From a virus, in the IMG/VR virus record IMGVR_UViG_3300034683_000333: a stretch of DNA of 64,000 bases; one strand, 5' to 3'. The translations under genes were made by a program, and so were the position numbers. Below, piece by piece: positions 3,547-62,518 of the stretch. The notes beneath the pieces are model-generated. The model searched no databases. It was not told the DNA's origin and was given only the letters and a program-made list of their open reading frames with translations. Each line of letters starts with the position of its first letter. The stretch's first letter is position 1.

Positions 3547-4896
3547 TTATGTTCTTGGTGTTCTGTCAATCTTTTTGGGTCTTTTGTAAGCCATGGTGAA
3601 CAATTCCTTTTCTTTCTGAAGTGCTCTCCTGATATAATAGTCGTATTCGTTAATGTTGTCAACCTTTTTATACTTGCTCATCAATAATTGGTATTCAGAT
3701 TCATCAACAACGCCTTTAATTCCATGTTTTGTAAACTCTTCCTTGATGGTTTCGATTCGACTGTTCTATGTCTTAATATCTTTCAAATCTTTATTCTTTT
3801 TGCTAATATAGTCTGGAACGTGATAAACGTAAAGATTCCTTGTGTCGGGTTCGTATGTGGCACCCTCAACACCGTGCTTTAAGAGGATGTCGAACGCATC
3901 TTTTTCGGATAGGCCGGATTCACCCAAATTGAGTTTGAGTGATTTCCCCACTTCTTTTCCGATCTGCATATCTTCGATATCGAGTTTCGTAAGTTCGGTA
4001 ACGATACCCGCATCTTGGTCAAAAGTTTTGAGAAAGAGGGCAACTCTACCTAAAATGATGTCGGGGTCACCCGAAAGTGTCAACTCCATCGAACCCTCAT
4101 GGCCGCCGTCCCACATACCATGAGTGTATTTCACCTCCTCGATGTCAATAAATGGGCTGTCGAGTGCCGTATCCAATGTTCCGTTCATGATATCCCAAAT
4201 CTTCGACCAATCTCCCGTCTCTTGTGCCTCCTTCGTGTATTTTACGATCTTTCGAAGGTTCTTCTTCATGGTCTCCTCTCTTGCCGCCGAAAGATTGACC
4301 TTGAACTTTCTGGCCCTAGTCACATCAAAGGGACGAAACATGGCGATCGCATTGCGCTTGTCATCCATTTTATAGTGCATTCCTGCAAATCCACGCTCCA
4401 TGAGTTCCCGTTCGGTCTGGGTCAACGCTTCAGCGCCACCCCAAGCATTTTCCTTCCAATATTTGGCGATTCCGAGTTCGTCTTTTTGAAGATCATAAAT
4501 CTGGTCCCTTGAAATGACGCCGTAGTATTTGGGAAGATTTTTAAAACGATCCTCCGGCTCGCTTCCGGCTGAATAGTAGTAGATGCGGTCAACGTAAATG
4601 TCGGGAAATTGCATCTGACGTTTACGTTCTGCGCCCTGTTGTCCCTTTCCGTGGTATTTTGGATCGAGGGTTTTGAGGCTTTGTTTTCGTGAGTAATGTT
4701 CCAGATACATGAGATTTTTCGTGTCTTTCTTTCCTGGTTTCACTTCATTTGGGTTCACCCAACGGTGGGCAAAATAGTATCCCTTTTCTGTCCTTGGGTC
4801 CTTCACCATTACCCGCTTGAGTAACTTTGCCGCTTTTTTCGTGCTTTTGTCTGCTACACGCCATTTTATATTTACTTTGATAAGTTTTTTATTCAT
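3547..4896 (-). CDS. Putative virion-associated protein (449 aa) with a basic N-terminus and a possible ART-fold domain; 1 in-frame TAG
   Basis: ORF 3766..4896 ends at TAG but continues open to TAA at 3547, just before the next gene's SD. Motifs include HRWVNPNE and HYSRKQSLKTLDPKYHGKGQQGAERKR...RIYYY...EPE. Confidence 0.75.
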
Positions 4897-4923
4897 GTTT
4901 TTCCTCCATATCCGATATCATTA

Positions 4924-6777
4924 TTACTCTAAAATATATTCGAACTCTTTCTTTATTTTGCTAGTAAGATCATATAGTACATCAAAATCAAATTGATTAT
5001 ATGTACTTCCATACAAATAAGACGGATTGTTATTTAGCTATTTGTCGTAAAATTCTCGCTCAATAATTTTCTCTAAATGTTCTTCTGTGTATTTATCCAT
5101 CAATTTATTTAAATCATTAAGAGTGGTTTTTTCTATTATTTGTTTAATTAGTTTATTAACATGAGTGTCAAGTCTTTCAATTTTACCATCTTTGAAATCA
5201 CTAATAAGTGTTTTAATTGTATCATAATATTTATTATCTTTATCAGCCTACTTTATTTTCTTCATCTATTCTTTAACATCTTCATCGTCCATGTAGTATT
5301 GTCCTTGATATTTTATATCCGTAAGAACATCAACGATATCTCGTTCTCTATTGTTAATCCATTTTTCATATAGTTGATTTAGTTGTTGATATGTTTCTGT
5401 ATTTTTAACATTTTCTTTCATTTCATCGTAGGTAATCTTCGTTTTGTTAATTCTGTCGTAATTGTTAACAAACGCTTCTAATGTTTTTGCCTATGATTCT
5501 CTACCATATACCTTATTCTCTTCCCAGTTCTTGAATTTTTGGCCATCATACTAAAGACTTATGCGTGCCTCTTTGTTTCCATTATTATCCGCCATAAAAA
5601 CAACCCAGTCACCAGAACGATGAAGATTTGTGCTGGCGAGAAGATTGTAGTTATATATACTAACATTAACCATTTTTTTATCTCTAATCGATTGACAACT
5701 TGCAAATCGGTCGGATGGTGATATCGTTATAAATGCCAATGGATTTTTAGAAAAATAGACATAATCCTTATTCGGATCATTTACATCTTTTAATAGTGAT
5801 TGTATTTTTTGTTCAAGTTGTTCCTATTTTTTTAAGCGTTCTTTTGTAAATTCGTACTTTGGTATGGATTTGTTTTTTATGAGGTCGGTTGCCGAGATGA
5901 CCAACTATTTTGCATCCGCATTTCCGAACTATTCGTAGAGTTCTTTGATCCTTGGATCATCGGAAATGTGATTTCTGAGCGCCGTTTTGAAGTGCTTTCG
6001 GATCATTTCCGGGTCGCCTACTACGGCCTCGATATCGGGGTCCTACATTTTTTCTTTCAGCGAATTGAGATTAAGTTTCGTGAGAAGCATGTCTGATAGT
6101 TCCTTTTTTCTGCTTATTGGATTGGAAAAAATTATGGCCTTATAAAGATGTTTTTTAATAGCTTTGGGACCGTATTTTTGATATGCATTGTTCATTCTGA
6201 TTATTTGCGATATCTATTGAGTTTCATGATCGTCAAACAATTCCGAAATACTATCCTGAAAGTCAATATCATATACAAGTGAATCAAGTTTTTCTTTTTC
6301 AGACATATTGTGTTTTACTTTTATCGTAAATGGGTCAATTCGCTCAATTTCTTCGAAATCTTTATGTAAAATTTTTTCCATCTCATCTACTTTAACAACG
6401 ATATCTTTATACCACTCTTTACTTGATAATAATTCAGCTAGCTCACGTGGATATTTATGTGCTGGAATACCGGAAAATAACTCCTTAGATTTGTGAACTA
6501 TATCATTCTAAAAGTCAAATGATACTATTTCATCAACATCACTTCCGGTGAGTTTGCGAAATAGATTGTCAATAATAGTCCATGAAGTGGCTACATCGTC
6601 TCCATGAGAGTTTTGTGATATAATATTATCAACTTCATTAAACTAGTATATACTATCCATTTGTTTTTGTTCTACACCAATGGCCGTTTCTTGTAATCGC
6701 TTATGAGCTTTTACAAGTTTACCTTCTCTCAAATGAGGTTTTACGTTTACGAGTTTTTTTGTTTTTGGTCTTTTCAT
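4924..6777 (-). CDS. Hypothetical protein, 617 aa, paralog B (multiple in-frame TAG)
   Basis: One frame from ATG 6777 (MKRPKTKKLVNVKPHLREGKLVKAHKRLQE) to TAA 4924 when TAG is read through. Aligns along its length with 6789..8642, for example YVYFSKNPLAFITISPSDRFASCQSIR. Confidence 0.8.
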
Positions 6778-6788
6778 ATTTTTTATTT

Positions 6789-8642
6789 TCAATAATTAAC
6801 TAGTTTTGTTCCAGTCATCCATTCCCATTCTTCATTTATTTCATCTATAAGCTCATTGAAATCATCAGAATAGGATTCAGACAAAGTTTCATTATATCCA
6901 TACAGAAAAGAAGGATTTTGCTCACTAAATAATTGTTGATTTATTTCTTCTTCTAGCTCGCTAAGCATATCATGATAATCTCTATCATGTAGCATCTAGT
7001 AAACTTCATTTAACGAAGAAAGTTCTGTAATTTCGTTTTCAACTTCGTGAATCATATCATCAAAATATTTTATATCTCCGTTTTTCTATTCCTCAATTTT
7101 TTGTTGAATATCATCATACCAATTACCACCGCTATCCACTCTTTTAATTTTTTCAAGATAATAGTCTATTGTGTCCATATCATCTTCATTTCCAACCATT
7201 TCACGTAGATATCTAACAATATCACGTTCTTCACTATTTTTCCAGTCATTCCAATGGCTAGCCAAGTCGTCATATAACCCGGTTTTTCTTAATAATTCTG
7301 AACCGTTTATATCTGGTGGATGATCTGATATGCGATCATAATTGTGATAAAAACTTGATAAGAGTGATGACCAATTTCCAGTACCATAGATTGATCCTCT
7401 TTCGTGGTTGTAAAACTTTTCTCCATCCCACTACAGGCTTACTCTTGCTTCTTTTTCACCTTTCTCATTAGCCATGAACGCAATCCAGTCACCAGAATCA
7501 CTAAGATTGACTGCCGCAAGCACGTTATAGTTGTTTTCACCAAGTGAAACATAGTCACGGTGTCGGATGGATTGACAACTTGCAAATCGATCTGCTGGTG
7601 ACATTGTAATAAATGCTAGTGGGTTTTTCGAAAAATAGACATATCTATTGGTGCCTGTGCTTATTTTATTGAATCCGGCCTGTAGTTTTTGTTCATATTG
7701 ATTCTACAGTTTCATATTATTATCATTAAATTTATAGTCCGGTATTTCTTTGTTTTTAATGAGACCTGTAGCGGCAATCACAAGCGATTTAGCATCTGCA
7801 CTGGAAAATGCATCATATAATTTTTTTACTGTAGGATCACCTAAGTGGGTTTTGAGTGCTGTTTTGAAGTGTTTTCGGATGACTTCTGGGTCGCCCACGA
7901 CAGCCTCTATGTCTTCGTCCCACATATTTTTCTTTAATGTTTCTAAATTCAATTTCGCTAACAGTTCATTTGGTAGTTGTTTATCACTTGGTGATTCTGT
8001 TAGCGTTATGGCTTTATAAAGGTGTTTTTTTATGGCTTTTGGACCATATTTTTCATGTGCTTTCTTGAGTCTTTCCATTTGTTCCATTAAAAGTACCCGC
8101 ATTCCACCAAATAATTTTTCAACGATATCGACCAAATCGTATCGGAAATCATCTAATAATTGATTATTTTCAATTGTATCTGTTTCAATGCGAATTGTAA
8201 AAGGATCTTCACGCTTTACATTATTAAAATCTTTAACCAAGATTTCTTGCATACGATCAACTTCATCAATTATGTCTCGGTAAAAATCTTCGTCAATGAT
8301 AAGGTCTGCCAATTCGGATGGATGATGACGAGCCATTACATTCGCTTTGTTCTATTTAGCATCCTCTAATAAATCTTTCCACATACGAGGTTCTTTAAAT
8401 TCATCAACATCGCTTCCCAAAAGCCTTCTAAAGTTTTTGTCGATAACTTCCCATGATAAATCTTCAATATCTTCATTTTTTTGTGATATGTTATCAATTT
8501 CACTTAACTATCGTTCAGTGTCTTGCTTTGTCTATTCTTTGTCAACAACTTTTTCTTGAAGTCGTTTGTGACTCTTAACAAGCTTTCCTTTGCGTGTATG
8601 TGATTTAACCTGAACAAGTTGTTTTGCTTTCGGGTGTTTCAT
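6789..8642 (-). CDS. Hypothetical protein, 617 aa, paralog A (multiple in-frame TAG)
   Basis: ATG 8642 (SD AAGGAAGG; MKHPKAKQLVQVKSHTRKGKLVKSHKRLQE). Joins ORFs 7704..8336 and 6789..6995 in one frame; ends TGA. Confidence 0.8.
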
Positions 8643-11700: not shown

Positions 11701-12498
11701 ATGTCTGACGGCTTAAAAATAAGTAAACTATATTCGCAAAGTATATATCAAGTGGAATCACCTTATTTACCGCCGAAGCAATAGTTTAGTAAATTAAATA
11801 TGAATGTTTTAGTGGATTTTTCTAGTGAGGTGACGCAACTACAATATTCAAAATTAAATATCAATGTTTTTTCAATCGTTGATGCATATATACCACCAGA
11901 ATCAACAACTGGTGGTGTTGAAATAACAAGGCTTTATGCGCAATCACTTTATAAGGTTGATACTCCTTAGTTGCCATTAAAGCAATGGTTCAGTAAATTA
12001 AATATGAACGCATTGATTAGCGATGGGGATGTAATCGAAGCTCGATACAGTAAAATTTACATGAATACTTTAAATGTTGTTGATCCATGGATTTCACCAT
12101 CGAGTGATCAAACCGGTGTAGAAATCAGTAAAATTTATTCTCAGGGGTTGTTTAGAGTCAGTGAACCATAGCACCCGATACCGATGTATTAGTCAAAATT
12201 AAATCTAAATGCAATGATAAGTAGTGTTATAGGTAATCAACAACAAAGATTTTCTAAATTGTACCAAAACGTAGCTATCACGAATGTAACAAGACCTGTT
12301 GAAATTAGGGCATCTAAAATGTATATAAATGTTCTTGTCATCACGGAACCATATTATTCAAATATTGAAAATGTTAGTGGTATAAAAACACCAGATTTAG
12401 ACTTGCAATACATATTTGACGGTTGTGGTGGTCTGGTATATAAAAAATTGGAAGACAAAATACTATTATACGAAAAAGAAATTCTGGAGATGAAATAA
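11701..12498 (+). CDS. Repeat-containing virion protein (265 aa; about 10 SK[LI]xxxx[LI] repeats), 3 TAG
   Basis: ATG 11701 is in frame with ORFs 11971 and 12214. Internal repeat KQ[TAG]FSKLNMN (11782) matches KQ[TGG]FSKLNMN (11986). Confidence 0.8.
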
Positions 12499-12953: not shown

Positions 12954-14012
12954 TTACGCTAATCTCTAACCATGTTCATCATTGTAATAATACAAGTTAA
13001 ATGAAGTGTTTGTGTTCTATAATAAATCTTCCTCTAGCCCCATAATCTTTTTGCCATTCCTTAAAATTGTAACCGGATTGGATTCAAAACTATCTGCCCC
13101 GTTGATGAATTCAATTTTTGTTCCGAATACCGGATTAGGTTCAAGTGTTATATTGAAAGATCCGTTTGTACTGTTTACAAAACACACATCGTTTCCTTGA
13201 ACGGTGGTTGCCGAAGTTATATCTAGAAATCTTATTGGTGTTGATATTTCTGTTTGATCAATAAATGTAATACCAGTTTCATCTTGAGATACAACTAGAA
13301 CTTTACCTGCATTATTTGTATATGTAGTTGGTGTGTCATTCAAATCAATAAAGGTTGCGATAAGTTCTGAATCAGGTACCGTCTATGTACCATCGACGTG
13401 TTTTGTGATACTTGTTAGATCGTCGTTAACGTCGTACTAATAGTTTGTTGTGCACGTTACATCATTTACAATTGCAATTGTTTGAGTAAGATTGTTTGAA
13501 CTATCGTAAATATATGTAATGTCCTGAAGTACAGTTCCATCACTTAGAATCTGGGCACTCGTTAAATCTCCCAGTGGAGAATAGTGATACTGAGTAGTGC
13601 GTTCGTCAATTTGAAAATCGAAAGCCCGTACATAGTTCACAACAAAATCTGTTTCTCCTAAGACCTGATAGGGTCCAACGGATACGGGAACGGTCGTTTG
13701 ATCCCCACCACCACTTGATCCACCACTCACAATGCCGTGCTAGGTTGTTCCGTCGTCGATATAGAGTGTTCCAGACTGATCCCCGGAGGAGACAAAATAG
13801 GCACGTCCCAAAACACCGGGAGATGGACGATTATTAAGCGGACCGATTTCCACTTTGCCGATGAGCTAACCCGTGGTTCCGTCTGAAATGAAGAGTTCTT
13901 TGGTATCGAGTGAAAAGAACGGTTCTCCAGGATCGAGACGCAACAACTCGTTTGCCATCAATGCATCGTAGGTTGTTTTGTTTCCCCGTTTTAATTTTAA
14001 CGTTATGCTCAT
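12954..14012 (-). CDS. Tail-fibre-like protein (352 aa), several TAG
   Basis: ATG 14012 (MSITLKLKRGNKTTYD). The N-terminus is paralogous to 26242..27213; YIDDGTT[TAG]HGI aligns with WVDDGSQWLEI. Joins ORFs 13437 and 13017; ends HG[TAG]RLA-TAA. Confidence 0.8.
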
Positions 14013-14026: not shown

Positions 14027-17000
14027 TTACCAAATTATATATGTAAGCTTTTTCTTTGGATTTTTAGAAATCAACTTGTGTTTATGTTTGATTTCTATAT
14101 TACTTCCTTTTATCACATTTCCAGATGTCAGATAATCATTCAATAAATTATTAGCCCACAATTCCAACGAATCAACTTGCGAACGAGTTACATAAATGTT
14201 ATATTCTTTTTCTTCACCAAGTTGTGTATTTCCTGTCATATCTTCAATGGTCAATATATGGTTATCATTGTATAGCAATAATTTTCCATCGTTTATATCC
14301 ACTGATTTTCCATAAATAGATTCAGAAATTGAATAAAATTCTATTGTTGTCGTATCTAAATCAATTTCATAAAGTCCGTTTACATATCCAGTATCGTCTA
14401 CACCACCTATTACGTGTAGCTTATTATTGTATATTATACATCCTGGTGATTTTATACCTTTTGGAATGTATGCCTACTCTGAAAATACACCAGTGGAAAA
14501 ATCAAATGACTAAATAGTTGAAATAAGCGTTGTTGCATCACTTTGACCACCAATGATGAAACAAGTGTCGTTTTCCTTTGTGATTCCGAAGTTGGCGTTA
14601 GGTATCGGAAGTGTTGTATCAAGTATCAATGTAGTTGTATCACCGATGTGATAAGTCTCAATTGTGTTTAGACAATTACCGCTTTCATCCATTCCACCCA
14701 AAATCCAGATGGTGTTGTCGTGGTAGATAACTCCTGGGTTGGTTCGGTCTGTTGTGAGGTGTGCCACATTGGACTACGTGGTGCTTTCGATATCGAATAC
14801 CCAAATCGGCGCACCCATGGTTCCATCTGGTACACCAATGAAGAAAAGTTTTGTTGTATCAATAAGTTGTGGAACTACCCCACTGACTACCCCACCGACT
14901 CCATCAGTGACAATCCCATTTGGAACGTCACTGACGATCTCCCACAAATCGTCCACTTCATTATATCGATAGAGATGATCAAGAGCCGCAAATCCGGTTG
15001 TGCTGTCTTGACGAATCCAATTATTCCTAATTTTCATCATGGGTGTTGTTCCAAAACTCAAAAGCTGTTCGTTGGTTCCGTCGGTATATCTCCATAATCC
15101 TGTTTCTTCTGTATCGGGTGAAATAATCACACCATATCCGTTTGTTCCACTTTCGTTCCATAGGAAACCGACCGTAGCTCTACCTTTGACATTTTCCAGT
15201 AAACATTCTAAAGTTATGGGCCTTGTTGATGTTAAATCACGATATATGGACCCATAACCTTCCGATTTAAGACTGTTGTTTTTAATCGTCTATTCACCGA
15301 TTGTTGTGGTCTAATAAGATAGATCATCTGAATTCGTGAAATCAACAAAATGTTCAAACACATCTGTTGCATTAAATTTAGTATCTCCACTTATACTACC
15401 AGTTAAAACTGCAATGGATGATGTAAAATCTGAACTTACTGGTATATTTACCCAAACAAATGCCGTTCGATCGGGTTCTTCTCCCACAACATTTTCGACC
15501 TACATTGGATATTCTGTTTTTAAGTGTGTTGAATAAATGGCAATATCTCCATTGTCTCCGCTTTTGGTGGGAAATCGTAAGGATTTTCCATCCAATGAGA
15601 TGTGACAATGACTGCAATCGGATGATTCGCCGATTTTTAGAAGAATCTGATGATTTCCTTCAGTTATGTTTCCACCGCTTAGAAGTTGTAACTCCTTTCC
15701 AAATGTTCTGTTTCCTGGGAAACCACCACCCTCTTTTTCTGCTACCACAAATCTTGGGTTGCTCTTGTTATGTTTGAAAATCATTACATAATCAATGATT
15801 GTTTTTCCACCACGTCCATCGGAGTATTCTCCTTGCCCAAACTATGGATATTTTGAATTGTTTAGATAGATAGTATCTGATGTCGTAATGTCAATTGCGT
15901 ATCCATTGTTATATACGATTTCCCCATCATCTGAATAAGAAAATTTTGCCATTTCCCATGTATTTAACTGGGTTAAGTTACCGCTATTTATCGCCGATAA
16001 TTTGACTGATGTTGCATTTGGTATGGTTTTAAAAATTCCTACATCATCTGCTCCGACACCACTAACCGGACTCTGATAGAATACAGAATAACCACCTTGT
16101 TTTACAGAATGCAACTATTCACCGTTTATGTTACTAATTGAATACATTCTACCTTCACCAAAACCAAAATCACTATAATTCTCACTATCAAATTTACGCT
16201 TATATATACATGAAAAACCGTGTGTAACAGGTTGTAGTGCTGTTATTGAAACCTAGTTAATAACATTTGATGTTGGTGACAATACACAAGATCCATCTCC
16301 CTATGTGTAAAGATTGCTATTGAGTGATGGATTATAAAAATCATCAAATAAGATAAAAACCGAGTGTGGATTAGATGCATTGTTTATATTTTTGCTACCA
16401 AAATAACAATAAATTGTTTGATCTGTATCAAGATCATCCAAAACTTTTATCCACACATAAGCTGTACGATTAGGTTTTACACCACGAACATCTTCTACCC
16501 ACATTGGATAAATAGATTGTGATTGAGCACCGACAAAAAGGATGTCACATGGTGCATATTTTTTGGAAGGAAATTTTTCAGAAAGTCCATCAAGGTGAAA
16601 ATCATAATCGGATGAATTTGCTGATTCACCAATTTTCAATTGAATCTGATAGTCTTTGCCAGCACCAGTTGATCCTTTGATGACAATTTGTTTTCGATAA
16701 TTCCAGTTATTTATATATTCGATTTTTCTATAGGTAGTTGCTTCTTCAGTCCCGAAAGTCAATAGGGTATCGAACAACGTGTAATAGGTTGCCTTGATCC
16801 ATGCATCAGAACGAGCAACGGAAGAAAGCCTGACCTCACATATCGTTCCCCTGAACTGGTCTATTGTCGCCCCATCGTTATTATGATAAGAAGCTCGTCC
16901 AAACTTCCAACTTCTTGCGTTTGACGACAGCGTTACGCCAGATCCAGTAGTTTTTGCGGTGTTTACGAATAGTGCTGATCCGACGCCAGATTCATTTCTG

Positions 17001-20000
17001 CCTGATAAATAATAGAAAACATCTGTGTCTAGTGCACTTCCGGTTAAAGACACATCGGCGTTCCAATCACCGCCACTATCAAGTTTCAAAAATGGTTGTC
17101 TTAGATTGTCCAGTCCTAGCGAAACAGGAAAGTCAGTGGTGCTTGTTGCGTAATATGACACCTTGTTGAAAATGAAATTATTAACATTGGAAACACCTGG
17201 TGTAGAACAAACAACTTCCATCGTCAAAGCCGTCGTATAATTCGTGGTCAGACCAGTATTTATGCAATCGTCAACACCATCAAAATCAAGACCTTTCCCA
17301 ACTAGACTTTCCACCAGATCGTCAGAAGTCATTGAACCCTCAACACTTGCGTGTCTTGCGTGCATAGAAGATTCAAGAATTGGATTGCCACCAACTGAAG
17401 GGTCTTGTCTTAAATGATAGACTAGTTCAAAGCCTGAATCCCAAACCTGTTGAGCTGGAGTTTCGCCGGTGTCTCCAACATAGGTTGTATTATCGGATTG
17501 TGTTGGATCATAATATAAATATAAAGTCGTATCTCTTGATGAACTTACAAATGGAACTCCAACATGAAGAAATCCTTTATTGGATGAATGATCCTAATAT
17601 TCTATTTCAACATAACATTGAGTTGTTCCATCACTAGTTGTCACAGCAATCTTTTTACGATCTAAATTAGAATTAAAGTCAGAAAATACTTCGCTTGGAA
17701 CTTTGATCATAATCGGGAAGTTGGTTAAATCTTCATCAATTTTTGAAGAATCAATGGTAATTGGAAGGCGATAGTTCCAGCCAGAGAGCTATTGAGATGC
17801 TATTTCCACATTTCCTGTTGAAAGGAAAGTTGGTTCCATACTCACAGCCTTGCGAACTGCAATGAAATCCACCTCACATTGCGAACCATAATGATTGCCG
17901 AATCCAACAGCACCCGTAGTGTAAGCCGAGTCTGTACGATCTACTGAACTTGTCCTGTTCAAACGTGTTCTCAGATAGGAACCTACAGCAGTCCCGGACA
18001 GAGTATGCCACACTCCATCGGGAACAGAAACGTCTATTCCATTAGGATATTCAACGCCATCTAAACGCTTAAGAATCCCAATTCTGTTGTTAGTATTGAC
18101 GCTGGCCCTAGCATAGTAGCAATTAACATTGCTCCAAGCCCTCGTCCTATCAAGCCGAATGAACAAATCATGCAACACGCTTATAGACCCTTTGAAGCTA
18201 GACATAATTTCACAGTCTGTAAAGTCGTCATTGGAAATTATGACTACTCTTCCAAAGTTGGGCGAGGACGTATTTCCAGAAATTGTGATGGTCCCGTTAT
18301 TGACCTGATATGAAGAATAATTTACATAAACACTCCATTTGTTGGTATCTAGGGATGTTCCATCAAAGTCGTCAAATAGTTCAAAAACCGAGTCTCCATC
18401 AGAAACGTTACTAGCTTCTGCGTTTCCAAAATAGCAGTATAGGTTGGCTGTGTTATCCAGATTATCAAGTACCTTAACCCAAATCCAAGCTGTTCGGTTC
18501 GGAGCTTGTCCATCTACTTTTTCAACCTAAAGAGGACAAAGAGTCGTTCCATCACTTGTGGTAAAGCGAATGTCACCTGAATGGTTCTTTCCAGTGGGAA
18601 ATAGTTTAGAAAGACCATCTAAATGAAAGTCTGCGTTAGATGAATCAGAAGACTCCCCTACTTTCAAAAGAACTTGGTAATTTTCTCCGACACCGGTAGA
18701 TCCTTGAATGGAAACTGTATTTCTGAAAAGCTAATTTCTTAACCACCCATTGATCGACTCTTGGGTTTCAGATAATGTTGTATCATTTATTTCCGTTGTA
18801 CTATCATTATAAAATTCCGGTTCGTCGTGAATAAATTTTCGAATAGCCGCATAATCTATTGTACGGGAACCACCGTTTCCATTAGAGTCTTCGGCTTGTC
18901 CGAAGAAGGGATATTTCATATTATTTATAAATGAACTATCAATCGTGTTTATAATTCTTGTTCCATCGAGGAATGCTTGGATGTATCCACTAGAATCAAT
19001 ACCAAGCTCACTGATAAACCATTCATTTAAATTGATAAGACCTGTGTGATCTGTATCAAATTCTAGAATCGTTTCGTTACCAGAACTTGGTACCGCAAGG
19101 CACGAGAACGTGCTTTGATCCCCGGTGATGGGGCTGTTAAACCATAGTGTGTAGCCTTCTCCAAGGACTGTTTTCTATGTTGCTTCATCCGAACCAAGCC
19201 CACGATACGGACCTGTTCCAAATCCCATTATTGAATAATGTTCATTATCTATTTTACTCTTTACTCGGAGGGCCACATTGTTAGTAAACAAATTGTTGGG
19301 TTTTAAAAGGATTGAAGAAAGTGAGTTTTGATTTCCACTGAGAGTGATCTGGCTTCCAAATTGTGTGATCGAAGGTGAGTTGAATTCTTCCTTTGTCTAA
19401 ACTGTTGTATCAATTGGATCACCTTCTGGGAGAAGTTCGACTGTCTATTTTTCTGGATCAAGAGATCCTTCAAAATCTTCGAAGAAATCAAACACCGAAT
19501 CTGGATCGCTTACATTTTCCGTGCTGTCTTTACCATAGAGACAGATGATTTTTTGTAAATCGGACCACTCATTGGGCACTCGAATCCACACCGTTGCTGT
19601 TCGATTGGGACTCGTACCAACCACATCGTGAACGTACATTGGGCAATAGGTTCCATCCATGGTTACAAATTGGATGTCACCACTTTCATTCTTTTGTGAA
19701 GGGAAGTGAAGTGCTTTTCCATCAAGGTGAAAATCGTAATTCAATGAGTTTTCTGACTCACCTATTTTTAATTCAAACTGTGATCCACTCTTAACATTAC
19801 CTTTACTAGATAAGTATATGCTGATACGTTCGCTGAATCCGTCTGTTGTATAGTTGGTGTTTATGGGTTGATATTTTTTCAATACTGGATATTTTTGCCG
19901 ATCCCAACGATGGATGTACTATTTATGTACGTCTGTATTTGAACTATACCATGTTCTAAGGTATAGTGGTCCACTATGAACATAATATCCATCAAACTTC

Positions 20001-23000
20001 CATATGTAATCAGCATGTTCAACAACTACACCTGAGTAATCATTTGCAATTGTATGCTATGCATAACCAATCATATCTCGTCCTGTAGATGATACACGAG
20101 TATTATTATAATATAATCCCCAATAAGATGAACCACCATCATCGTTATTATAAAAAAGCTATCTTGTTCCATATTGATATCGACTTGAACTTGTAACCTA
20201 TCTGACGTATGTGTTTATTTTGTAATTTCGTCCTTGAAGTTTATTGTATGATATCTAGAAATCATCAACGTCGTCCGTAGAACCGTTTTTGTTTAATTTA
20301 CAATAATAAGCGTAATATGCAGGTGTTCGTAATACATTGAGTTCTGGGTGGAGCGGTCCACCAGTCATAAATTGCCAGAATGTGAAAACATTATGAGGAT
20401 TATTTATATTTGGAGCATTTTCTAATCCATATTTCAATTTCAATGGTGTTGCACCGTATTTAAAATCTCCCTTAATCCAAATTTTTGCAATACGATTGGG
20501 TGATGTTCCATCGACGTATTCTACCTACATTGGAAGTGTTATGCCATCTTCCGTTACGAATCGGATGTCGCCGGAATGTTCAAGAGTTGGGAAAAAGAAG
20601 CATGAATGATCCAATGCAATATTACAATTTTCTGTTGTTGGTGACTCTCCGAGGATGATCGGGATTTGCCAATCCGTTACACTTTCATTTGTGTTTATTA
20701 CAATACAATCCTGTTCGTATCTAAATATACCAGTTTGATCCACCATTTCTTCATTGTGATATTCTAAGAATATTGGTTCTTGTTCAACGTATTTTCTTAC
20801 TCTTATCTAATCGTTACATAATTTTTTGTCATTACTTACTGCATTGGCGGTAAAACCTATGCAACCCGAATTTCTTTGAACGGAATCGATAAGCTCTAGC
20901 GATGCATATTGTGTTGTAAAATCATCTGTAAATGAGTAATAGATATAGGTATTGTCTAAAAGTGTTACCCTATACCACATCTATGTATTATGTGGTAATG
21001 GTTTTGCTGTATCAGAAATCTTTGGGTTTGGACTTTCTCCAACTATATTTATGCAAAATCTCCATATGTCTTCCGTTGAAGTTGTATTGTGTATAAATGT
21101 AACTTGTCCTGTTGGTGGAGAATCTGTATAATAACTTGAACGTGTTATTAGCGATATTTCACCATAACCACTTGTGTTAGCTGTCTTTGCTTTATATTCT
21201 ATAATTTGTTTTTCTGAATGTATATAATTTTTTGTACCCAAATTATTTTTATCACCAACATTACTCATCATTATATATGGTACAAATGTATTATCATCGT
21301 TGTATTTAATGTATTGATTAGCGTTTACCCACTATTTTTCGTAATTCAGACCATTTTCCCAATCTTCAAAAAAGTCAAAAACCTTTTCTCCACTGCTAAT
21401 GTTTGGTGCATTAGGATTTCCATAATAACAATAGATTGTGGTGTCACTTGTGCAATCAACGGGTATCTTAATCTAAATATAGGCAACATTCCCATTTTCT
21501 GTTTGAACGACCTTTTCTGTATACATCGGAACTTCGGTTGTTCCATCAAATAGGAGGAATTTGAGATCTCCAGAATCATTCATTTTGGTGGGAAATTTTT
21601 CTGAATGCCCATCAACGTGAAAATCCACGCCGGTGGTATCCTGAAACTCACCGACTTTTAGTAGGAATTGGTAATCGGCACCAACGGTTTCATTTCCACG
21701 AATCACAAATAGTTTCCTGAATTTCCATATATTGACTTGTTCAGATTTTTTCTCAATTTCACCGAACATTATTACCTTTGGCTCAATTAACGTTGCTTTT
21801 GTAATCAAAAGGTTCTTAAAATAAGCATATGTAGATCCTACATTATCACGTTGTGAATAAAACAATACATTGGCAACCCTAGAATAGATTTCGTGGTCCC
21901 AATAATGATATACATTATCTGTTATATCATTAAGAAGATCTGACCATATTGCGTTGCTGTGTTTTTTGAACCATTTCAATTCTGTATAATACTATTCTCT
22001 ACTTGATGTTGATCGTGCTTTTGAATAAAGCGTTATACTTGTTCCATTATACTATTTACTGATTTTTGGATGTTCACTATAAGATGTCGATCCACCAACT
22101 TTATGAGATACATAAAATCTATTGTCGTCATTATATAACAATGCCATACTTACCTAATATTGAAAACTTTCATTCGTTGCATAGTAAGTATGGAACTTTA
22201 CACCATCTAGGTTTTCTGGTAGTGTAAAAATATATTCACATTTACTTGTTGGTGTATGTGTATTTCTCAAATAATCGTATATTACATCATAGTTGGATTG
22301 ACTTTGTGTGCCAGTTGTATTTGTAAAATCTTTAAATGGATCACTTTTGCGATCCTAAGCCCAAATGACCGTAGATTTTGGATCGCTTATGTTTTCTGCG
22401 CTTTCATTTCCATAATATAAGTAAATATCTTGATCGAGTTCTGCGTTTGGAACCTTCACGTAGACAGTTGCGGTACGATTTGGTAAAAAGCCTTCAACTT
22501 TATGAACGTAGATAGGTAAAATTGTTGTTCCATCATCCAGTGTAAATCGGAGATCACCACTTTCGTTTGGACGTGAAGGAAATTTACAAACGTTTTTACC
22601 AAGAAAAACATCAAAATTGCTTGAATTGTGGGATTCACCAACTTTAATTTCCACGGCATAATCCGTACCGGCACCGTGAGAACCTGAAAGTTTGAGCTTC
22701 CTCCGGTAGGTCCATCCAGGTAACCAATTTGTTGTGGTTGTTGAATCCTCATTTATTATAATAGGTGTATATGTTGCATCAAGGTGTTCTTGTTTCCGTA
22801 TTTTGATACAATCCTAGTACATTGATCCACCGTCTTCCATCATACAGAATGCACCAACATATCCAGATTGATCTTTAAATATAGGATCTAACGTAGAACT
22901 CCACGATCCAATTTTTTGGCTACCGTTTTTGTAAATTGTGAAATCTACTTTATTATCGATTTTGGAAACTAAAATTTTATAAGGAACGTTGTTTTCCCAC

Positions 23001-26241: not shown

Positions 26242-27213
26242 TTAGATAGTTCCACAATCCAAAGTCTTCACATAAAGTCGGTTTCCGTTACCGGCATCGA
26301 AATCGATGGTAGAACCATCCACTTTAAGTTTAAGTCCTCCGTTTTCGACGATGAACGGATGTGCATCAGTTGTGAATGCAAGATTTAGTGGTGCACCGTT
26401 TCCACCGGAAAGTCCTTGTCCTGCAACGTCGCCGATGACAAGTTCACCGGAGACTACCTTGATCGTCGTGTTATCGGTTCGTGCACTGATGGTGGAGTCG
26501 GAAATACTAATTCCGTCACCTGCTACATAGGTGGGGCTTGTAATGGTGGAGAAGGAAACCCACGAAGTGGTTTCGGCGTCATAAGTGTATCCCTTGTCTT
26601 CATCTTGGACAAAAACGGCCCAGTTTGCAGACGGAGCAAAGAAATCCCAAGATGTTCCGTTCCATTGTGCAATCTTGGCATCTTGTCCAGCCCAGTCGCC
26701 GGTTGCACCCGAGCCAACGAGATAGCGATCACCGGAATTTGGTGTAAGAGCGGATGGATCGGTAACGATGTCGAGCACAGGGTCACGCCAAGATAAACCA
26801 GCAATGGCGTTGTCAATTTCATTTCTGATTTTTTGAGAACTCCAAGCTTTCGTGGATAGTGTTGTTGAATCGTCGATTTCTGTATGAATTGAAGTGTTAA
26901 TAACATGGTTTGTGAAGTCTGTTTCTATACTAGTAGATCCACCCGAAATTTCGAGCCATTGACTTCCGTCATCAACCCATGTATCACCCGTGGATGAATC
27001 GACAAAAATACGACCTTTGACACCAGGTGATGGACGATTAGTAAGTAGATCAACAATGGCACGCCCAACGAGATGTGCATTTGTGCCATCGCTGATGTAA
27101 ATTTCGTTTGTGTCGGTCGTGTATGCAAGTTCACCAATCAGGAGTGGCGTCGTGCTCATAACAGTATCTAGGGCTGATTTTGTTCCTCGTTTAATTTGAA
27201 TAGTTGTTGGCAT
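26242..27213 (-). CDS. Tail fibre/spike-like protein (323 aa)
   Basis: MPTTIQIKRGT...GELAYTTDT N-terminus, a DUF2793-like segment (GDRYLVG.GATGDWAGQD.KIA.W.G..W.F), ends LDCGTI-TAA. All of its Trp codons are TGG. Confidence 0.8.
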   Translation of the reverse strand: MPTTIQIKRGTKSALDTVMSTTPLLIGELAYTTDTNEIYISDGTNAHLVGRAIVDLLTNRPSPGVKGRIFVDSSTGDTWVDDGSQWLEISGGSTSIETDFTNHVINTSIHTEIDDSTTLSTKAWSSQKIRNEIDNAIAGLSWRDPVLDIVTDPSALTPNSGDRYLVGSGATGDWAGQDAKIAQWNGTSWDFFAPSANWAVFVQDEDKGYTYDAETTSWVSFSTITSPTYVAGDGISISDSTISARTDNTTIKVVSGELVIGDVAGQGLSGGNGAPLNLAFTTDAHPFIVENGGLKLKVDGSTIDFDAGNGNRLYVKTLDCGTI

Positions 27214-28637: not shown

Positions 28638-28762
28638 TACACCTCCTTTCACTAAAATATAGTATAACATAAAATTAGTGAAAAGTCAACTTTATGTAGA
28701 AAGGAAAGAAGGCGATTCCTCTCCAACTTTCGCTAACGCTTAGAAGTTGGAGTCTCCTCGCC

Positions 28763-44398: not shown

Positions 44399-46141
44399 AT
44401 GGCAAAAAAAAGAAGATTTCGTAAACAAGATAGCCATCTTATTCAACCAAATAGCGAGATAGATGATAAGTATAAAGGTAAAGATCCAGAATAGTATAAA
44501 AAAGAAATCCAGAAATGTAACAACGGATTGGATGGAGCAAAGTATTTTATCAACAATTATATATATGTACCGAATAAAATTGAACAACGTATTATCGAAT
44601 CAAAACCTAATTGGTTTAAGCATCTCATATTTGAAGGCGATCGAATCAATTTAAAACTATATGGAAAACAAGAAGAATATCTTGAACACTTGTTTTCAAA
44701 CCGTTTGGTTGCTACATATAAAAGCCGCCAAACTGGTATTAGTACAATTACATAGGCTTATATATTGTGGTATGCCACATTCAATAGTAGTAAGGAAGTT
44801 GTTATTGTGTCCAAATCAGAGACGGAGGCCATTAAATTTCTTGAAACGATTTATTATATGTATAATCATCTTCCGTTCTTTTTGCGGCGTCCCTATTCCA
44901 AGGCCGTCACCAAATCGTTTTGGTTGGGGGATCGAAACAGTGCAACGAAAATCAACGTTCTCACCTCCACCGCCAAATCCGGTCGTAGTTTTTCAGCGAC
45001 AATTCTTGTCCTTGATGAATGTGAGTTTATTGACTATGCCGATACGCTTTGGGGAGCTGCCCAGCCCACATTGTCCGCCACGGGTGGTCAGGGTATTTTG
45101 ATTTCCACACCCTGGATGTATAATTCGTGGTTTTGGGGTGTATGTAATCCCACCGATCCCGAAAATCATCCATTCGACGTTTTCAAAATTCACTGGAGCG
45201 ATATTCCCGGTCGTGATAAGGACTGGTACGAAGAACAGTGCAAGGAATTGAACTGGGATCAAATGAAAATCAAAACGGAATTGGATATGCAATGGATCAT
45301 TCCTTACACACTATATTTCAACGAAGAACACTTAAATGATAAATATATTGTTGATAAGAAAAGTGTGTATAAATACGATAAACAATAGAACTTATACATT
45401 CTTCATGAATATAACCCAAATGAAACATATTATTTTGGAATTGATACATATGAACAGGGTAATGATTTTAATGCTGGAACTATAATTGATTCAACGGGAA
45501 GAGTATATGCGTTTTTTAAAACTAAGCGAATTGATATAAGGGAATTGATTATTCATCTTTGCGAAAAATACCATGTATTGGCAAACGTAGAGCGCAATCG
45601 TGGTTTTTGGTTAATCAAGGAATTTATGGATAACGATATTGCTGAAAAGTATTTATTATATCAAGCGAAAAAGTGGAAAGGCATTGAACGCAAATATTTT
45701 GGATATGTAGTTAATGAAAATCGCCAAATGATCTTAAGTTATCTTTCATCCTGGCTGAAGGATGTAAATGTTTACAACGAAGTTGTTGATAAAAAGGAAT
45801 GGATTCTAATACCAGATGAATTGATGGAGGAAATGAAATACTTTGTAATTAAAAATCGACGCATTGAAGGTTTGAAACATGACGATGGTTTATTTTCACT
45901 TGGTGCCGCACAATTCGTGTTGAATAATCAAGATGTTTTTAAGAACATCGAAAAAGAACACGATGGAAAAACGGTTCCACCCGATGAATTTTATAAAAAC
46001 GTAAATGATCCAAAACGAAAACACCAACGAAAAATGTCCGTTGAAAATATGAAACGTCTCCTTTTGGGAAGCCGTGAGATGAGTCCATCGATGTCCGTTG
46101 AAGAGTTATTGGAGATGGAAAGGTTGCTCAATAAAAAATAA
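44399..46141 (+). CDS. terL: Terminase large subunit, T4 gp17-like (580 aa), 3 in-frame TAG
   Basis: KSRQTGIST (Walker A), GRSFSATILVLDECEF (Walker B), ILISTP and YFGIDT (RNase H). The ATPase and nuclease domains join only by reading through TAG at 44492, 44753 and 45386; ends TAA. Confidence 0.92.
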
Positions 46142-46201: not shown

Positions 46202-46669
46202 TTAACTGGATAGACTCTTAATCCAATCCATTTCTCCATCTGTATCCATATTTTTCGTTGTATCGTTTAGAAGTTTCTTCCATTTAATTAGGTATTCTTG
46301 AATCTTACAACTTGTTTCCAATAGTTTGAAAAGAATATCTTTACGATGTCCAATTAGGTTTACAATGGAATCGTTTAATTTCTTGGCCGTGTCAAAAACA
46401 GAAATGTCAATAGATTCCTCGATTTTTTCAATGTATGTTCGAATGTATTCAAGTTCATCAATCAGCATAATAAGACTATAATAAAGTAGGTTGTTTATTC
46501 TATTTGGCGAATGTTTCAGATCAATAGTTTCTGCTATATCTTGTAAAATACCATTTAATTCATCAATAGCTTCTTTAATACTGTCACGGACTGTATCTTT
46601 ATTTGGTTGTATAAGTTGTTTATTTATTTGTTCAAAATTATATGAATCTTTGTTAAATTCTAATCCCAT
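46202..46669 (-). CDS. Hypothetical helical protein (155 aa)
   Basis: SD GGAGTG before ATG 46669 (MGLEFNK), ends TAA. Confidence 0.7.
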   Translation of the reverse strand: MGLEFNKDSYNFEQINKQLIQPNKDTVRDSIKEAIDELNGILQDIAETIDLKHSPNRINNLLYYSLIMLIDELEYIRTYIEKIEESIDISVFDTAKKLNDSIVNLIGHRKDILFKLLETSCKIQEYLIKWKKLLNDTTKNMDTDGEMDWIKSLSS

Positions 46670-46692
46670 AATCTCACTCCTTAAGTTGAATT

Positions 46693-46722
46693 GGGGGAGA
46701 TGGCTTTTACACCATCTCCCCC
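46693..46722 (-). terminator. Strong hairpin after the capsid gene (terminator or processing site)
   Basis: GGGGGAGATGG...CCATCTCCCCC 11-bp stem with only a weak U tract. Confidence 0.55.
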
Positions 46723-46744
46723 CCAGATCAGTTAGGATCATTCA

Positions 46745-47896
46745 TCAGACGAAGACGACCTTACCGAGGGTGTTGGGAGTCACCACCTCGAAGGCATCGC
46801 AACGATAAATGATCCGATAGGTGTTGGCGTTCTTCTCGGTGATCGGAGGCGTGGTGCCCACGAGATAAGGAGCAAACACACCGGAGAACACTTCGTGTTC
46901 GGGATAGTTACAGGTCATGAGAACGCCGGGCATGAAGGGATCGTAGACGATCTCATAGGCCATGTTATACACACCGAGGAAAATACGACCGAGAGTGCCG
47001 GAAAATGGCGTGCCGCCGGGAACGATCTGGAGCTTTTCACGATCGAGGAGGGAGTAGGCATCGGGTCCCACAACGAGAACGTTGGGCTTCACGCCGTACT
47101 GACGGAAAATCTGAGCGGCAAGTTGTTCAATTACATCTCCAAATGTCTTCTTGTAGTATTCCAGCTTCACGGGATCGTTGCTAAAATCGGTGGGATTGAG
47201 TTCAAAATTTGCTGTGTTGACGGCGGGAACGTAGTTCCACAGTTCATTGATCACGTCGAATTCAGCCTCGTCCTTCAGCTTGCTGTAAATGGTGTTGGTG
47301 AGGCGTTCGTCAACGAAAGAATTGGCGTTTTCAAGGCCCATTACGGAGGCCAGGGCGATGATGGACTCAAGGGTCCATTCGGCATTGATTCGACGGATCT
47401 GGGTCGTTACGCTCTTGGAGCGAACGGAAGCCTTGATGCCACGGGCAACGGAGCTTTCGCCAACCATACCGTAGGTACGGGTGCGCTTTTCCCGAAGCAG
47501 GTCACCGGCAACCAGCGTGGTGTCGGAGGCACCGAGAGCGCCGGTCTCGGTGAAGGCGTCGGCATATTCCTAATCCACAAAGTAGATTACGGGATAAGGA
47601 GTTTCGGCCTTCTGCACGTTCACCACCTTGTCCACGATGGTGTTGATCCAGAACTTGGGAACCACAACGGAAAGTACATTGCTGAACACATCGATGTCGG
47701 ATGCGCTCATGCCACTTTCCATCGTCTTCTTCATGGTGATGAGCTTTTCGGAGTTTTCAAGCACGGACTTCACAACGGAGCGCTTGCTATAAGTGAGTGA
47801 ACTCCCGAGATTGTCCAGAATGGCATCAATACGATTGCGCTTTTCTTCTGGAATGGTGATGCGATTTAGAACTTCTAGGTTAGTCTGTAGCTTCAT
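46745..47896 (-). CDS. Major capsid protein, T4 gp23-like (383 aa), 1 in-frame TAG
   Basis: ORFs 47570..47896 and 46745..47467 are in one frame joined by TAG 47570 (YFVD[TAG]EYA). gp23-like order: VVNVQ...PVIYF, then SKSVTTQIRRINAEWTLE...DER...EINELW, then NVLVVGP...GIFAPY. C-rich third positions suggest high expression; ends TGA. Confidence 0.88.
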
Positions 47897-48012: not shown

Positions 48013-50730
48013 TTATTTAGACTTGATTAGCGTAACAATGTTATCAATTACGGTGTTTTTCTTATTGCTATTGTCTTCCATCACAACATTCTTGTTAATC
48101 TTAGCCGCATCTGCTGTAACCGTTTGGGTGTCGATGTCCATTTTTTCAAAAATGTCAGACACCACCAGCTTGTTCTTTCCGGCCATTTTTGCTAGCCATT
48201 TCTGAACAAGTTTCAACTGATCAGCGTTTTTGATTCCACTGATTTCGGTGAATACATCGTTGTCCAGCACTTCACGGAACCTGTAACAAAGTTCCATCTT
48301 CTTTTGCTCAAGTTCCATTTTGTCCATGAGCGCCTTGTGGTTGCTTTCCACTTCGTGGTATTTCGCCTCAAGGCTTTCCCGTTCTGACTTGATGGATTCC
48401 ATTGTCTTCTCAAGTTCTTCCTTTTCGCTCTTAAGTGATTTCATTGCGCTGCTAAGGGTTGATACTTGGTCACGTAACTTGCTAATTTCACCGTTCATCG
48501 TGTTGAAAATTTCAGAATTTTCCGTAGACTTAAACGCATCAACAGATTCTCCATTCACAATCTTCGCAACGTCTACTGCAAACTTATTGAGATGTTTTGC
48601 AAGAGTTACAAATCGATCCTCATTGAGTTCGATAATTGCATAATCCTCAATAAATGGATCGATGGTTTTAACGATAGAATCAAGGATAGAATACATTTCT
48701 TCATTGGTAATGTTTAGAGTTTCCTTGAAGTAATCACCATTGTCGATAAGTTTTTCAATCATCTTATCGTCAAGCTTAACGGAGATTTTGTCGGTTTCAT
48801 AGAAAACTTCCGCAAACTTGACGCTTTCACCCATCTTCATGAGATTTTCGGGTGCTTCCAGTTCCAGTTCCTCGTAATGGCGAAGGAGATGTTGGGCGGC
48901 GGCCTGCTTTTCTTCACCGGTTGCCACCACACCACCTCGTGCGCCACTTAGGGCCTGGGAGGCGGCGAGGAGTCCCTGCTTGCTCACAGATACGGAAACA
49001 ACATCATCTTCGACGCTCACCGCATGGTGGGGAAGCTTCCATTCCTCGGCCTTTTCGTAGCCACGAACGATTCCGAAAACCTCGTCAACGAGTGCCTTGA
49101 AATCTTCTTCTTCGAGAAGTGCATCTTCCTTGACCTTTAGAACCATGGAGCGGACTTCATCGCCATTCCACTTTTCTTCGTTCAACTCATCCGTCTTATT
49201 CATCAAGGAAGCATCGGCCACTTCCTGCTTTCCATCATCACCGGCATCACTATCATCATCCTGGGGTTCATCGTCGGTCTTCATTTCGGGCTTATCGGAA
49301 CTATCCTTGAGTTCGTTCCAAAGACACACAAAATATTCCTTTTCTTCGGCCATTGTGGAAAGATTCTGGTGAACCGCATCCAGAACTTCTTCCAGATCGC
49401 CTTCATCCACGGAATCGGCGATAATTGTTTTAAGTTCGTCTCCGTTGAGAACAAATCCGTTGTCAACAAGTTCTCCAAATTTTTCGTCTCCAAATAGCTG
49501 AACAATTGTCTTTAGTGCATCCATGTTAATTTCCTTGAGATATCCACCAACCCATTCTTCAACGGATTCCTTGGTTTCTTCCAGCGATTCAACAACCGCT
49601 GAAATAGATTCACGAATTTCGTCCGTTACTTTGTAGTCTTCCTTGATGTTTGCGGTCATCCATTCATCAATGTTGTCGGTGGTTAGTTCAACAATTTCAT
49701 CCATGTTGTCAAAAATCAACGCCAAATCATCAAGAACGTTGAACATGTAGTTCGCATCTTGTAGTTTTTCCTTGTTAATTTTCATGTCCAAATCCTTCCC
49801 CTTAAGTAAAAATTTTAATTCATCCAACGTTGTAGTTGGTTTAACATGCTCCTTGAGCAGTTTATCATTTACCTTCATTGCACAAAGCGCAACGGGTGAT
49901 TTTACATCTATATATTCTTCGGAGATGTAGTTAAAAACCACATCATCTTTTGTAACATGTTTATTTGTGTTAATTGTATCTGTTACGTTTACACCAACAA
50001 TGTCATATTTTGTTGATTGACATAGAAAATCACCGGGATATGTTACGATATCAAATCCAAGTAGGCGAAGCACATCAATTTGAGAAACGTAATCGGAATC
50101 TACATCCCAAAAATCAAGGGATTCGAATACTTCCTTAAGATAGGTGATTCCATTGAAGTTATTTCTATGTGTCGGTCGATCATACTTTTGTATTCCAGCC
50201 ATGAATCCACGCTGTGAAATTCCTATTACCGGATCAACCGATCGCATGAAATAATCAATGAGTTGTTGTTTTACCAAAACAAAATCAAGAATGATTGCCG
50301 CATGTTTTCTTCCTTTAATATTTATATATTCAAGATTTGCATCAAGAATATATCCAGCGATATCCTCATAACGATTGTTTTCACCCATGTTAGGATCTTC
50401 AGAATCTTCCGTGGTAGGATGACTATCAAACATCATTCTGTAGTAATTTTGTTCATCTATTAGTTTCTTATATTTATGATAGGCTTCTTCAATGGCTTCG
50501 TTCGAATAGATTCTGTTTTTACTAATTTCGAGATTTCCAACTGTTCCAATACCACGCAAAACGATGTTGAAAAGCTTTCCTTGTTTATAGAGTTCGACAG
50601 CCTTTTTCCATTTACCGTCGTCTCGATTTGAAAATATATAAGAATCGACGGTGATGTTGGTATTTCCAAGCTTTAGTGGTTGAATATGTTTTGCGTTGTC
50701 AAAATAAGATAATTCTGCCATTTTTTGCAT
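48013..50730 (-). CDS. Prohead protease (gp21/S77-like) fused to an acidic coiled-coil scaffold (905 aa)
   Basis: N-terminal KNRIYSNE...FDSHP...IGISQRG...GFDIVTYPG, then long acidic and coiled-coil regions, directly upstream of the capsid gene. No TAG. Confidence 0.75.
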   Translation of the reverse strand: MQKMAELSYFDNAKHIQPLKLGNTNITVDSYIFSNRDDGKWKKAVELYKQGKLFNIVLRGIGTVGNLEISKNRIYSNEAIEEAYHKYKKLIDEQNYYRMMFDSHPTTEDSEDPNMGENNRYEDIAGYILDANLEYINIKGRKHAAIILDFVLVKQQLIDYFMRSVDPVIGISQRGFMAGIQKYDRPTHRNNFNGITYLKEVFESLDFWDVDSDYVSQIDVLRLLGFDIVTYPGDFLCQSTKYDIVGVNVTDTINTNKHVTKDDVVFNYISEEYIDVKSPVALCAMKVNDKLLKEHVKPTTTLDELKFLLKGKDLDMKINKEKLQDANYMFNVLDDLALIFDNMDEIVELTTDNIDEWMTANIKEDYKVTDEIRESISAVVESLEETKESVEEWVGGYLKEINMDALKTIVQLFGDEKFGELVDNGFVLNGDELKTIIADSVDEGDLEEVLDAVHQNLSTMAEEKEYFVCLWNELKDSSDKPEMKTDDEPQDDDSDAGDDGKQEVADASLMNKTDELNEEKWNGDEVRSMVLKVKEDALLEEEDFKALVDEVFGIVRGYEKAEEWKLPHHAVSVEDDVVSVSVSKQGLLAASQALSGARGGVVATGEEKQAAAQHLLRHYEELELEAPENLMKMGESVKFAEVFYETDKISVKLDDKMIEKLIDNGDYFKETLNITNEEMYSILDSIVKTIDPFIEDYAIIELNEDRFVTLAKHLNKFAVDVAKIVNGESVDAFKSTENSEIFNTMNGEISKLRDQVSTLSSAMKSLKSEKEELEKTMESIKSERESLEAKYHEVESNHKALMDKMELEQKKMELCYRFREVLDNDVFTEISGIKNADQLKLVQKWLAKMAGKNKLVVSDIFEKMDIDTQTVTADAAKINKNVVMEDNSNKKNTVIDNIVTLIKSK

Positions 50731-61430: not shown

Positions 61431-61480
61431 TTTAACTATCCTTTTTTATTTGCCTTTTATGTAAAATTAGAAAAAATTAG

Positions 61481-62518
61481 TTAAAAGTAGTTGTTAAATA
61501 ACCACCACGAGTTCTCCTTCGTGGTAACCACCCCAGCCTGGACAATCCTTTGTATTTTTGATTCAAGGTTTGCCTCATGTGGATTGAAAAGCTTATTCAC
61601 GTTAAGAATACCGGCAAGTTCCGTTGCTAAATAACTAGCCGTTCGTTTTACCCATTTCTTTTCTTGATTTGAAAGTTTACCCTCGCTTGTGACGGATTTG
61701 TAAACCATCCATGTGGGAGCATCGATCGTATTCCATGCGTCAACAAGCGTCCTCCTTCCAAGATAGGCACCGTAACGATCGAGTAAATCCTTGTTATTTA
61801 CGATTGTGTCAAGTAGATGAATCATCTGAAGGGCGTATTCTGAACTACGGTTGATTGAATTTTTGATTCCATCAGCCGTAACAAGTTTGATGCGACGACT
61901 TGGTTTTCCCTTTTTTGTCTTAACACCGCCCTTTGCAAATTCCTTAACGGTCTTTGACTTATTGTGTAGTTGTTTCGTTTTCTTGACAAACACGTCTTCG
62001 GGAAGTACAAATTGGCGACGAGAATTATTTCCGTTTAGAATATCTGCAATTTGGCGTGCATATTTAGGCATAACCATTGTAAGTTTTTCACGCCATAGAT
62101 TGAATTCACGGGCATTTTGTTTCTTCTATCCAGCAAGACCCCCCATTCGTCGAATATGTTCAATGGATTGTGATACAAAAGCTCCATCGGGCTTGTTGAA
62201 ACCAACGTTATTTTTGAGTATCGTTTTCCAAAGTTCCTTTTCCATATCCGTTTGAAATTCATACAACATAAGGAAATTTTCAAGTGCATAATCTTTATCG
62301 CTAGACAATTTCTTTCTAATATTTCTGTGATCACATTTTGGTTTATCGACGAGAAAATAATCAACACCTTCCTTGAGTTTTTTGAATGACTCTTTGTTGG
62401 GATCAACATAATATGTGCGAAGAATTGTTACTGGAGTCTTACTTTTACCAACTTTTGTATTCACAAGCTTTTTTATCTTCAGCAACTTGGAATAGTTCTT
62501 TTTTCGACCCATATCCAC
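61481..62518 (-). CDS. 345-aa paralog of the N-terminal half of 58683..61430, 1 TAG
   Basis: ORFs 62126 and 61481 join. GGLAG[TAG]KK aligns with GGFRNWEK; both share KNNVGFNKPDG and MPKY..Q.ADILNGNN. Confidence 0.8.

Follow-up and report, generated by a model that had tools for sequence, protein, structure and literature searches.

Which amino acid, if any, does TAG specify in the phage represented by IMG/VR virus record IMGVR_UViG_3300034683_000333? The question is raised by the 64,000 nt of this record analyzed here (hereafter, the window), for which a sequence-only reading had proposed a reassignment of TAG to tryptophan (Trp, W) between positions 3547 and 62518. Alignments of TAG sites with homologs indicate that TAG very probably encodes Trp in this phage, with UAA and UGA as its sole terminators.

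It is close to certain that TAG acts as a sense codon across the whole window. In-frame TAGs number 137, occur in 31 of 44 genes and span positions 673-63288; the proposed recoding thus stands, its extent being slightly wider than first given. The individual TAGs singled out earlier (6043, 10538, 11782, 13740, 15500, 17789, 18527, 19445, 20525, 20807, 21473, 25154, 32387 and 62126) are all in frame. As had also been claimed, genes end in TAA or TGA only: the 43 complete genes use TAA (32) or TGA (11) and never TAG. Coverage of the window by open reading frames (ORFs) of at least 100 codons, a coding-density comparison suggested by the sequence-only reading, rises from 74% under table 11 to 97% with TAG as sense, while the control reassignments of TGA and TAA give 83% and 91%, respectively. 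Reading TAG as sense also lengthens the longest ORF, from 909 to 3925 codons. No in-frame TAA was found in the window genes, and their single in-frame TGA (33439) is polymorphic between strains. In three genes, the role of a TAG lying 4-7 codons ahead of the stop is ambiguous.

Assembly error does not explain the TAGs, since independent samples and a second study keep the same TAG-rich sequence. Assemblies L003, L004, L006 and L014-L018 are 99.9-100% identical to the window over TAG-rich stretches, and contigs from the second, independent study (oil field) cover the same genes; this confirmation across samples is at contig level, that is, from assemblies rather than individual reads. One ORF deserves separate mention:

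658-1200: ORF with 6 TAGs, four of them at 673-769, overlapping a HEARO RNA (538-776) on the opposite strand

Because of this overlap, the 5′ part of the ORF may not be coding.

For the identity of the inserted residue, TAG was translated as X to avoid search bias, and homolog residues were then read at the X columns. The genes that contribute most of the comparisons below are the following:

32333-32827 (+): DUF5662 gene (Pfam PF18907, E 6e-38) with 4 TAGs (32354, 32387, 32744 and 32759)
14027-25777 (-): giant 3916-aa protein with 10 DUF2341 repeats plus LamG and Kelch (Pfam), 42 TAGs
11701-12498 (+): gene with an internal 88-nt repeat (copies 11717-11804 and 11921-12008)
4924-6792 (-): first of two tandem paralogs, 12 TAGs
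6789-8642 (-): second tandem paralog, 7 TAGs

Within DUF5662, the column of TAG 32387 holds W in 107 of 119 homologs (Y in 9, F in 1), which upholds the earlier placement of HK-TAG-YVF on a conserved Trp, and the column of TAG 32759 holds W in 108 of 119. TAG 32354 falls on an L/F/I/W column and TAG 32744 on one that is P or variable; none of the 119 homologs has glutamine (Gln, Q) in any of the four columns. The giant protein behaves similarly, with W making up 85% of 175 aligned residues at TAG 17594 and 79% of 117 at TAG 17789, as well as all homolog residues at TAGs 18731 (7/7), 18527 (9/9), 25154 and 21473 (9/9 each), and Q amounting to 0-1% at the DUF2341 TAG columns. With its ten DUF2341 repeats in register, TAG appears at two positions where sister repeats carry W or Y, in agreement with the sequence-only reading, and TAG 14774 coincides with the signature Trp of a Kelch repeat when aligned to solved Kelch structures. 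Outside the window, ~10 kb past its end (contig L024), the same phage has an AdoMet decarboxylase gene in whose HTWPE motif TAG takes the place of Trp.

Internal comparisons point in the same direction. TAG 11782 faces TGG 11986 across the 88-nt repeat, and self-BLAST sets TAG 6043 and TAG 5491 against W in the tandem paralogs, where three further TAG sites face TAG. TAG 13740 and TAG 62126 also face W in their paralog pairs. Of these facing residues, those at 6043, 11782, 13740 and 62126 had been noticed from the sequence alone, together with exceptions that recur here (A at 5929, S at 5905, some Y and F). As a separate observation on these paralogs, contigs of two runs continue from window position 7643 backward to position 5800 through 36 letters of other sequence, which suggests an alternative arrangement or recombination between 4924-6792 and 6789-8642.

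In the packaging and capsid region, three neighboring genes are relevant:

44399-46141 (+): large terminase (Pfam PF03237), 3 TAGs
46202-46741: TAG-free gene between the terminase and capsid genes, whose homolog in contig L019 has an in-frame TAG
46745-47896 (-): Gp23-like major capsid protein (Pfam PF07068), 1 TAG

Contig L019 belongs to a related phage (25% G+C; 60% protein identity in the gene shared with 46202-46741), and its in-frame TAG aligns precisely with a Trp in the protein of the window. The terminase shares only 23% identity with known phages, too distant for single-column reading; at its single alignable TAG, T4 gp17 has Ala, which is uninformative for the residue. The TAG in the UDG gene falls outside the part aligned with homologs.

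A Codetta-style sum of log-odds over the 27 TAG sites having at least 5 aligned homolog residues returned +13.6 nats for W and no positive value for any other residue (F -7.6, Y -22, K -32.8, Q -33). Run on codons of the query that specify W, Q, Y, F, L, E, K and H, the method recovers the correct residue each time. Such a tabulation of homolog columns had been put forward as a check on the Trp proposal, with Trp expected to dominate, and it does. In these alignments, external-family columns that are well conserved and occupied by TAG are Trp columns without exception. Pyrrolysine was considered as well and found no support, given the K value of -32.8 nats and the Trp identity of the TAG columns.

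Differences between strains offer a further view. Eight codon differences involve TAG, namely TGG/TAG (4), CAG/TAG (2) and TAT/TAG (2). The TGG/TAG sites are 33737, 8452, 18732 and one in the flank. They run in both directions, codon 8451-8453 being TGG in the window and TAG in the oil-field strain and codon 18731-18733 the reverse. Two of the genes concerned are:

32881-33873 (+): gene with TAG 33736 and in-frame TGA 33439
29215-30408 (+): gene with 10 TAGs, in which CAG at 29548 is TAG in another strain

Against contig L005, the first of them differs by A/G at 33737 (TAG/TGG) and by T/C at 33439 (TGA/CGA, Arg), and the in-frame TGA at 33439-33441 is either a nonsense mutation of this strain or a readthrough site. 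This plus-strand gene replaces the minus-strand ORF that had been assumed near 33 kb. A homolog search with 29215-30408 detected none. The polymorphism tally leans toward Trp, with small numbers and some of them from low-depth contigs.

Several results weigh against Trp and need to be set beside the above. The per-site Trp score is 0.5 nats at TAG versus 2.18 at TGG. With TAG as Trp, this residue makes up 2.1% of the encoded proteins, compared with 1.4% from TGG alone, and 2.1% is high relative to typical proteomes. No TAG column of the 4924/6789 family is Trp-dominated: at these columns, distant homologs with 25-31% identity carry F, I/L/V, T/N or variable residues, and never Q. The CAG/TAG differences at 29548 and 9268 would be silent if TAG were Gln. 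Furthermore, E. coli glutaminyl-tRNA synthetase (GlnRS) readily charges tRNAs with a CUA anticodon, so that some Gln insertion is possible.

The decoding machinery adds to these points. A tRNA scan over the 64,000 nt detected no tRNA gene, and neither the window nor the ~46 kb of flank recovered by walking rightward through other assemblies of the same phage (to ~+46 kb) yielded a tRNA, release factor or synthetase. The right flank carries replication-type genes with few TAGs (SNF2 helicase, SSB, HNH/IscB protein). Contigs from several samples all end at ~+33 kb and ~+46 kb (L032, the record of L027, L036), suggesting repeats or strain variation there, and the +46 kb end falls within a TnpB fragment. 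A protein look-up made during the walk (P0007) led to an unrelated phage, whose standard-code gene calls look intact. A search pattern for a tRNA with CUA anticodon and a fixed acceptor stem (C1:G72, discriminator U73) matched in three other contigs, the relative L019 as well as L020 and L043, and had no match in the searched genome contigs. In L020 (401-632, -) and L043 (1638-1957, +), which are unrelated contigs, the tRNA-CUA comes directly after tRNA-Gln(UUG) and tRNA-Gln(CUG), its acceptor being CCCCGTG/CACGGGG plus U73 in both. The acceptor stem shared by the matched tRNAs is no evidence of conservation, because the pattern forces it. The body of the L019 tRNA-CUA is 64% identical to E. 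coli tRNA-Trp and 64% identical to a phage tRNA-Gln.

Among the alternatives, the one that survives best, and which we still consider unlikely, is that TAG is ambiguous or stands for another bulky or hydrophobic residue, either Trp plus Gln by mischarging of the CUA-tRNA or else Tyr, Phe or Leu. The greater heterogeneity of TAG sites relative to TGG sites, the frequency of Y and F as partners in paralog pairs, the two TAT/TAG polymorphisms and the F/I/L/V columns of the 4924 family would all suit it. However, the strongly conserved columns are specific for Trp (at 32387, Y reaches only 9/119 and F 1/119), the summed scores of F and Y are negative (-7.6 and -22 nats), and a recent origin of many TAGs at tolerant sites, which is a simple explanation, would be expected to make TAG sites heterogeneous. 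A minor share of another residue at TAG, for instance Gln by mischarging, could be excluded only with protein data.

Gln throughout, the meaning under genetic code 15 that crAss-like, Lak and other recoded phages use, is very unlikely. It is the sole TAG meaning published for phages, it would account for the two CAG/TAG polymorphisms and for the tRNA-CUA with the same acceptor beside tRNA-Gln(UUG) and tRNA-Gln(CUG) in L020 and L043, and it is what gene callers already apply to this phage: P0241, the public copy of 4924-6792, has Gln at all 12 TAG positions. Yet TAG does not align with Gln in homologs, Q being absent (0/119) from both DUF5662 Trp columns and limited to 0-1% at the DUF2341 columns. 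The summed score is -33 nats for Q against +13.6 for W, although true CAA/CAG sites return Q, and the four TGG/TAG polymorphisms would have to be Trp/Gln replacements.

Editing of the mRNA is scarcely plausible. A-to-I conversion of UAG into UGG would also yield Trp and would make a suppressor tRNA unneeded, but well over 130 sites without common local structure would have to be edited. Bacterial mRNA editing by TadA requires a tRNA-Arg-like hairpin and affects few sites. The relative L019, moreover, has a tRNA-CUA. Finally, that the TAGs go untranslated (as pseudogenes, assembly errors or true stops with rare readthrough) has nothing in its favor beyond the default table 11 reading and can practically be dismissed, as 31 genes are broken by TAG alone and never by TAA/TGA over ~19,800 codons, essential genes (terminase, capsid, the 3916-aa protein) are affected, the same TAGs are retained across several samples and two studies, and domains run on in frame past them.

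If TAG is Trp, how might it be read? We propose that the phage would supply an amber-reading tRNA with anticodon CUA, that this tRNA, charged with Trp, would decode UAG, and that a phage-encoded tryptophanyl-tRNA synthetase (TrpRS) possibly charges it. Both would act after host takeover, in such a way that TAG-rich virion genes would be made only in the recoded state, a timing that follows, by analogy, the model put forward for phages with TAG=Gln or TGA=Trp. Whether the phage has a self-contained Trp-inserting amber system of this kind, in which a divergent phage TrpRS would charge a tRNA-CUA with an unusual acceptor end (C1:G72, U73), we regard as evenly balanced. TAG use across genes is uneven: the TAG share of Trp-type codons (TAG+TGG) is 6/6 in 12954-14012 and 12/17 in 4924-6792, against 0/9 in 26242-27213, 0/8 in 48013-50730 and 0/6 in the TnpB gene. 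This fits the timing model of Borges et al. (10.1101/2021.08.26.457843), with which it is compatible and which it does not prove.

Established phage recoding comprises TAG=Gln and TGA=Trp or Gly; for phages with a code unlike that of their host, Borges et al. report TAG=Gln and TGA=Trp only. The suppressor tRNA is phage-encoded in 35-40% of published recoded-phage cases. The window phage resembles recoded phages (crAss-like, Lak, Garnet, Topaz, Jade and Agate; Borges et al.; Peters et al. PMC9523058) in that one stop is a sense codon in many genes, virion genes included, while some genes are free of the recoded stop and termination is left to the other two. It differs in having TAG at Trp positions, whereas those phages read TAG as Gln or TGA as Trp/Gly, and also in habitat, gut for them and subsurface or oil field here. 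Jade phages (Borges et al.) are alike in the residue, insertion of Trp by a phage TrpRS and suppressor tRNA having been proposed for them; their codon, however, is TGA, read with a UCA anticodon alongside their own TrpRS and RF1, in contrast with TAG in the window phage.

The sequence-only reading knew of no NCBI table that assigns TAG to Trp, but one exists: table 32 (Balanophoraceae plastids) has UAG as Trp and UAA and UGA as stops, a codon table identical to that proposed for the window phage. As under this code, TAG lies on conserved Trp and TAA/TGA still terminate; the plastid lineage is what does not match. In the Balanophora plastid, pRF1 was lost and a nuclear tRNA-Trp with CUA anticodon is imported, according to PMC13128298, which calls the TAG=Trp code exceptionally rare and cites Su et al. 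2019 for it. Table 32 serves an organelle of a parasitic plant, whereas a virus has to impose its code on a host cell. A literature text search, with most subscription journals outside its coverage, returned no phage or prokaryote with TAG=Trp. The TAG=Trp code is therefore not unprecedented, and its use by a phage appears to be the new element.

If true, this assignment would give phage recoding its third amino-acid meaning along with a codon/amino-acid pairing new to it, and would be an independent origin of UAG=Trp, in a virus. Phage gene callers have TAG=Gln built in as an assumption, which would then be unsafe. In Logan, TAG-containing genes are called at full length; evidently the gene caller applied code 15 to this phage, and its database proteins are probably wrong at every TAG. 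Should the system of phage tRNA-CUA plus TrpRS prove true, UAG=Trp would for the first time be known in nature beyond a plant plastid and, likewise for the first time, be imposed by a virus on its host; if both partners are real and mutually specific, they would be a candidate natural orthogonal pair for Trp amber suppression. It also raises the question of how a CUA anticodon escapes Gln mischarging.

As for the phage itself, the window has 37% G+C and its 44 genes, with TAG read through, take up 93% of it. They include a T4-type large terminase, the Gp23-like major capsid protein, an SLT lysozyme-like protein, a family-4 UDG, the DUF5662 protein, the 3916-aa DUF2341/LamG/Kelch protein and many without a family. 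From this content, the window is taken to hold the structural and packaging genes of a large, uncultivated tailed phage of ~195 kb; its sequence recurs in contigs of up to 195 kb. The runs carrying it come from two studies and are labelled as subsurface, soil and oil-field metagenomes. Four queries found no relatives in IMG/VR or GTDB genomes, and no DNA match to the window was found among cultured phages. PHROGs gave weak matches only, for just 4 of the 10 TAG-rich genes scanned, and the SLT protein had no match among solved structures.

The window also harbors a TAG-free TnpB gene (OrfB_IS605/Cas12f-like) at 27516-28670 (-), and an exact look-up of its protein returned only the window's own copy. 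Strain variants L001, L002 and L005 are without this gene and carry others instead (NT5C, ParA-like ATPase), which makes 27.4-28.8 kb a strain-variable spot. Three copies of HEARO RNA (RF02033, 153-163 bits) were found, two in the window, at 538-776 (-) and 35926-36152 (-), and one in L011, at 4395-4615 (+). HEARO is the guide RNA of IscB/OMEGA elements. The L011 copy lies upstream of a 422-aa RRXRR+HNH (IscB-like) gene, the copy at 538-776 precedes ORF 513-1, which runs off the window, and that at 35926-36152 is followed by nothing more than a 128-aa ORF (35269-35655), which may be a remnant.

Two proteins, encoded at 12954-14012 (-) and 26242-27213 (-), share an Mtd_N (major tropism determinant) N-terminus, the latter also with DUF2793 (Pfam matches on the identical copy in L003). 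Within this pair, the former gene has 6 TAGs and no TGG, and the latter 9 TGGs and no TAG.

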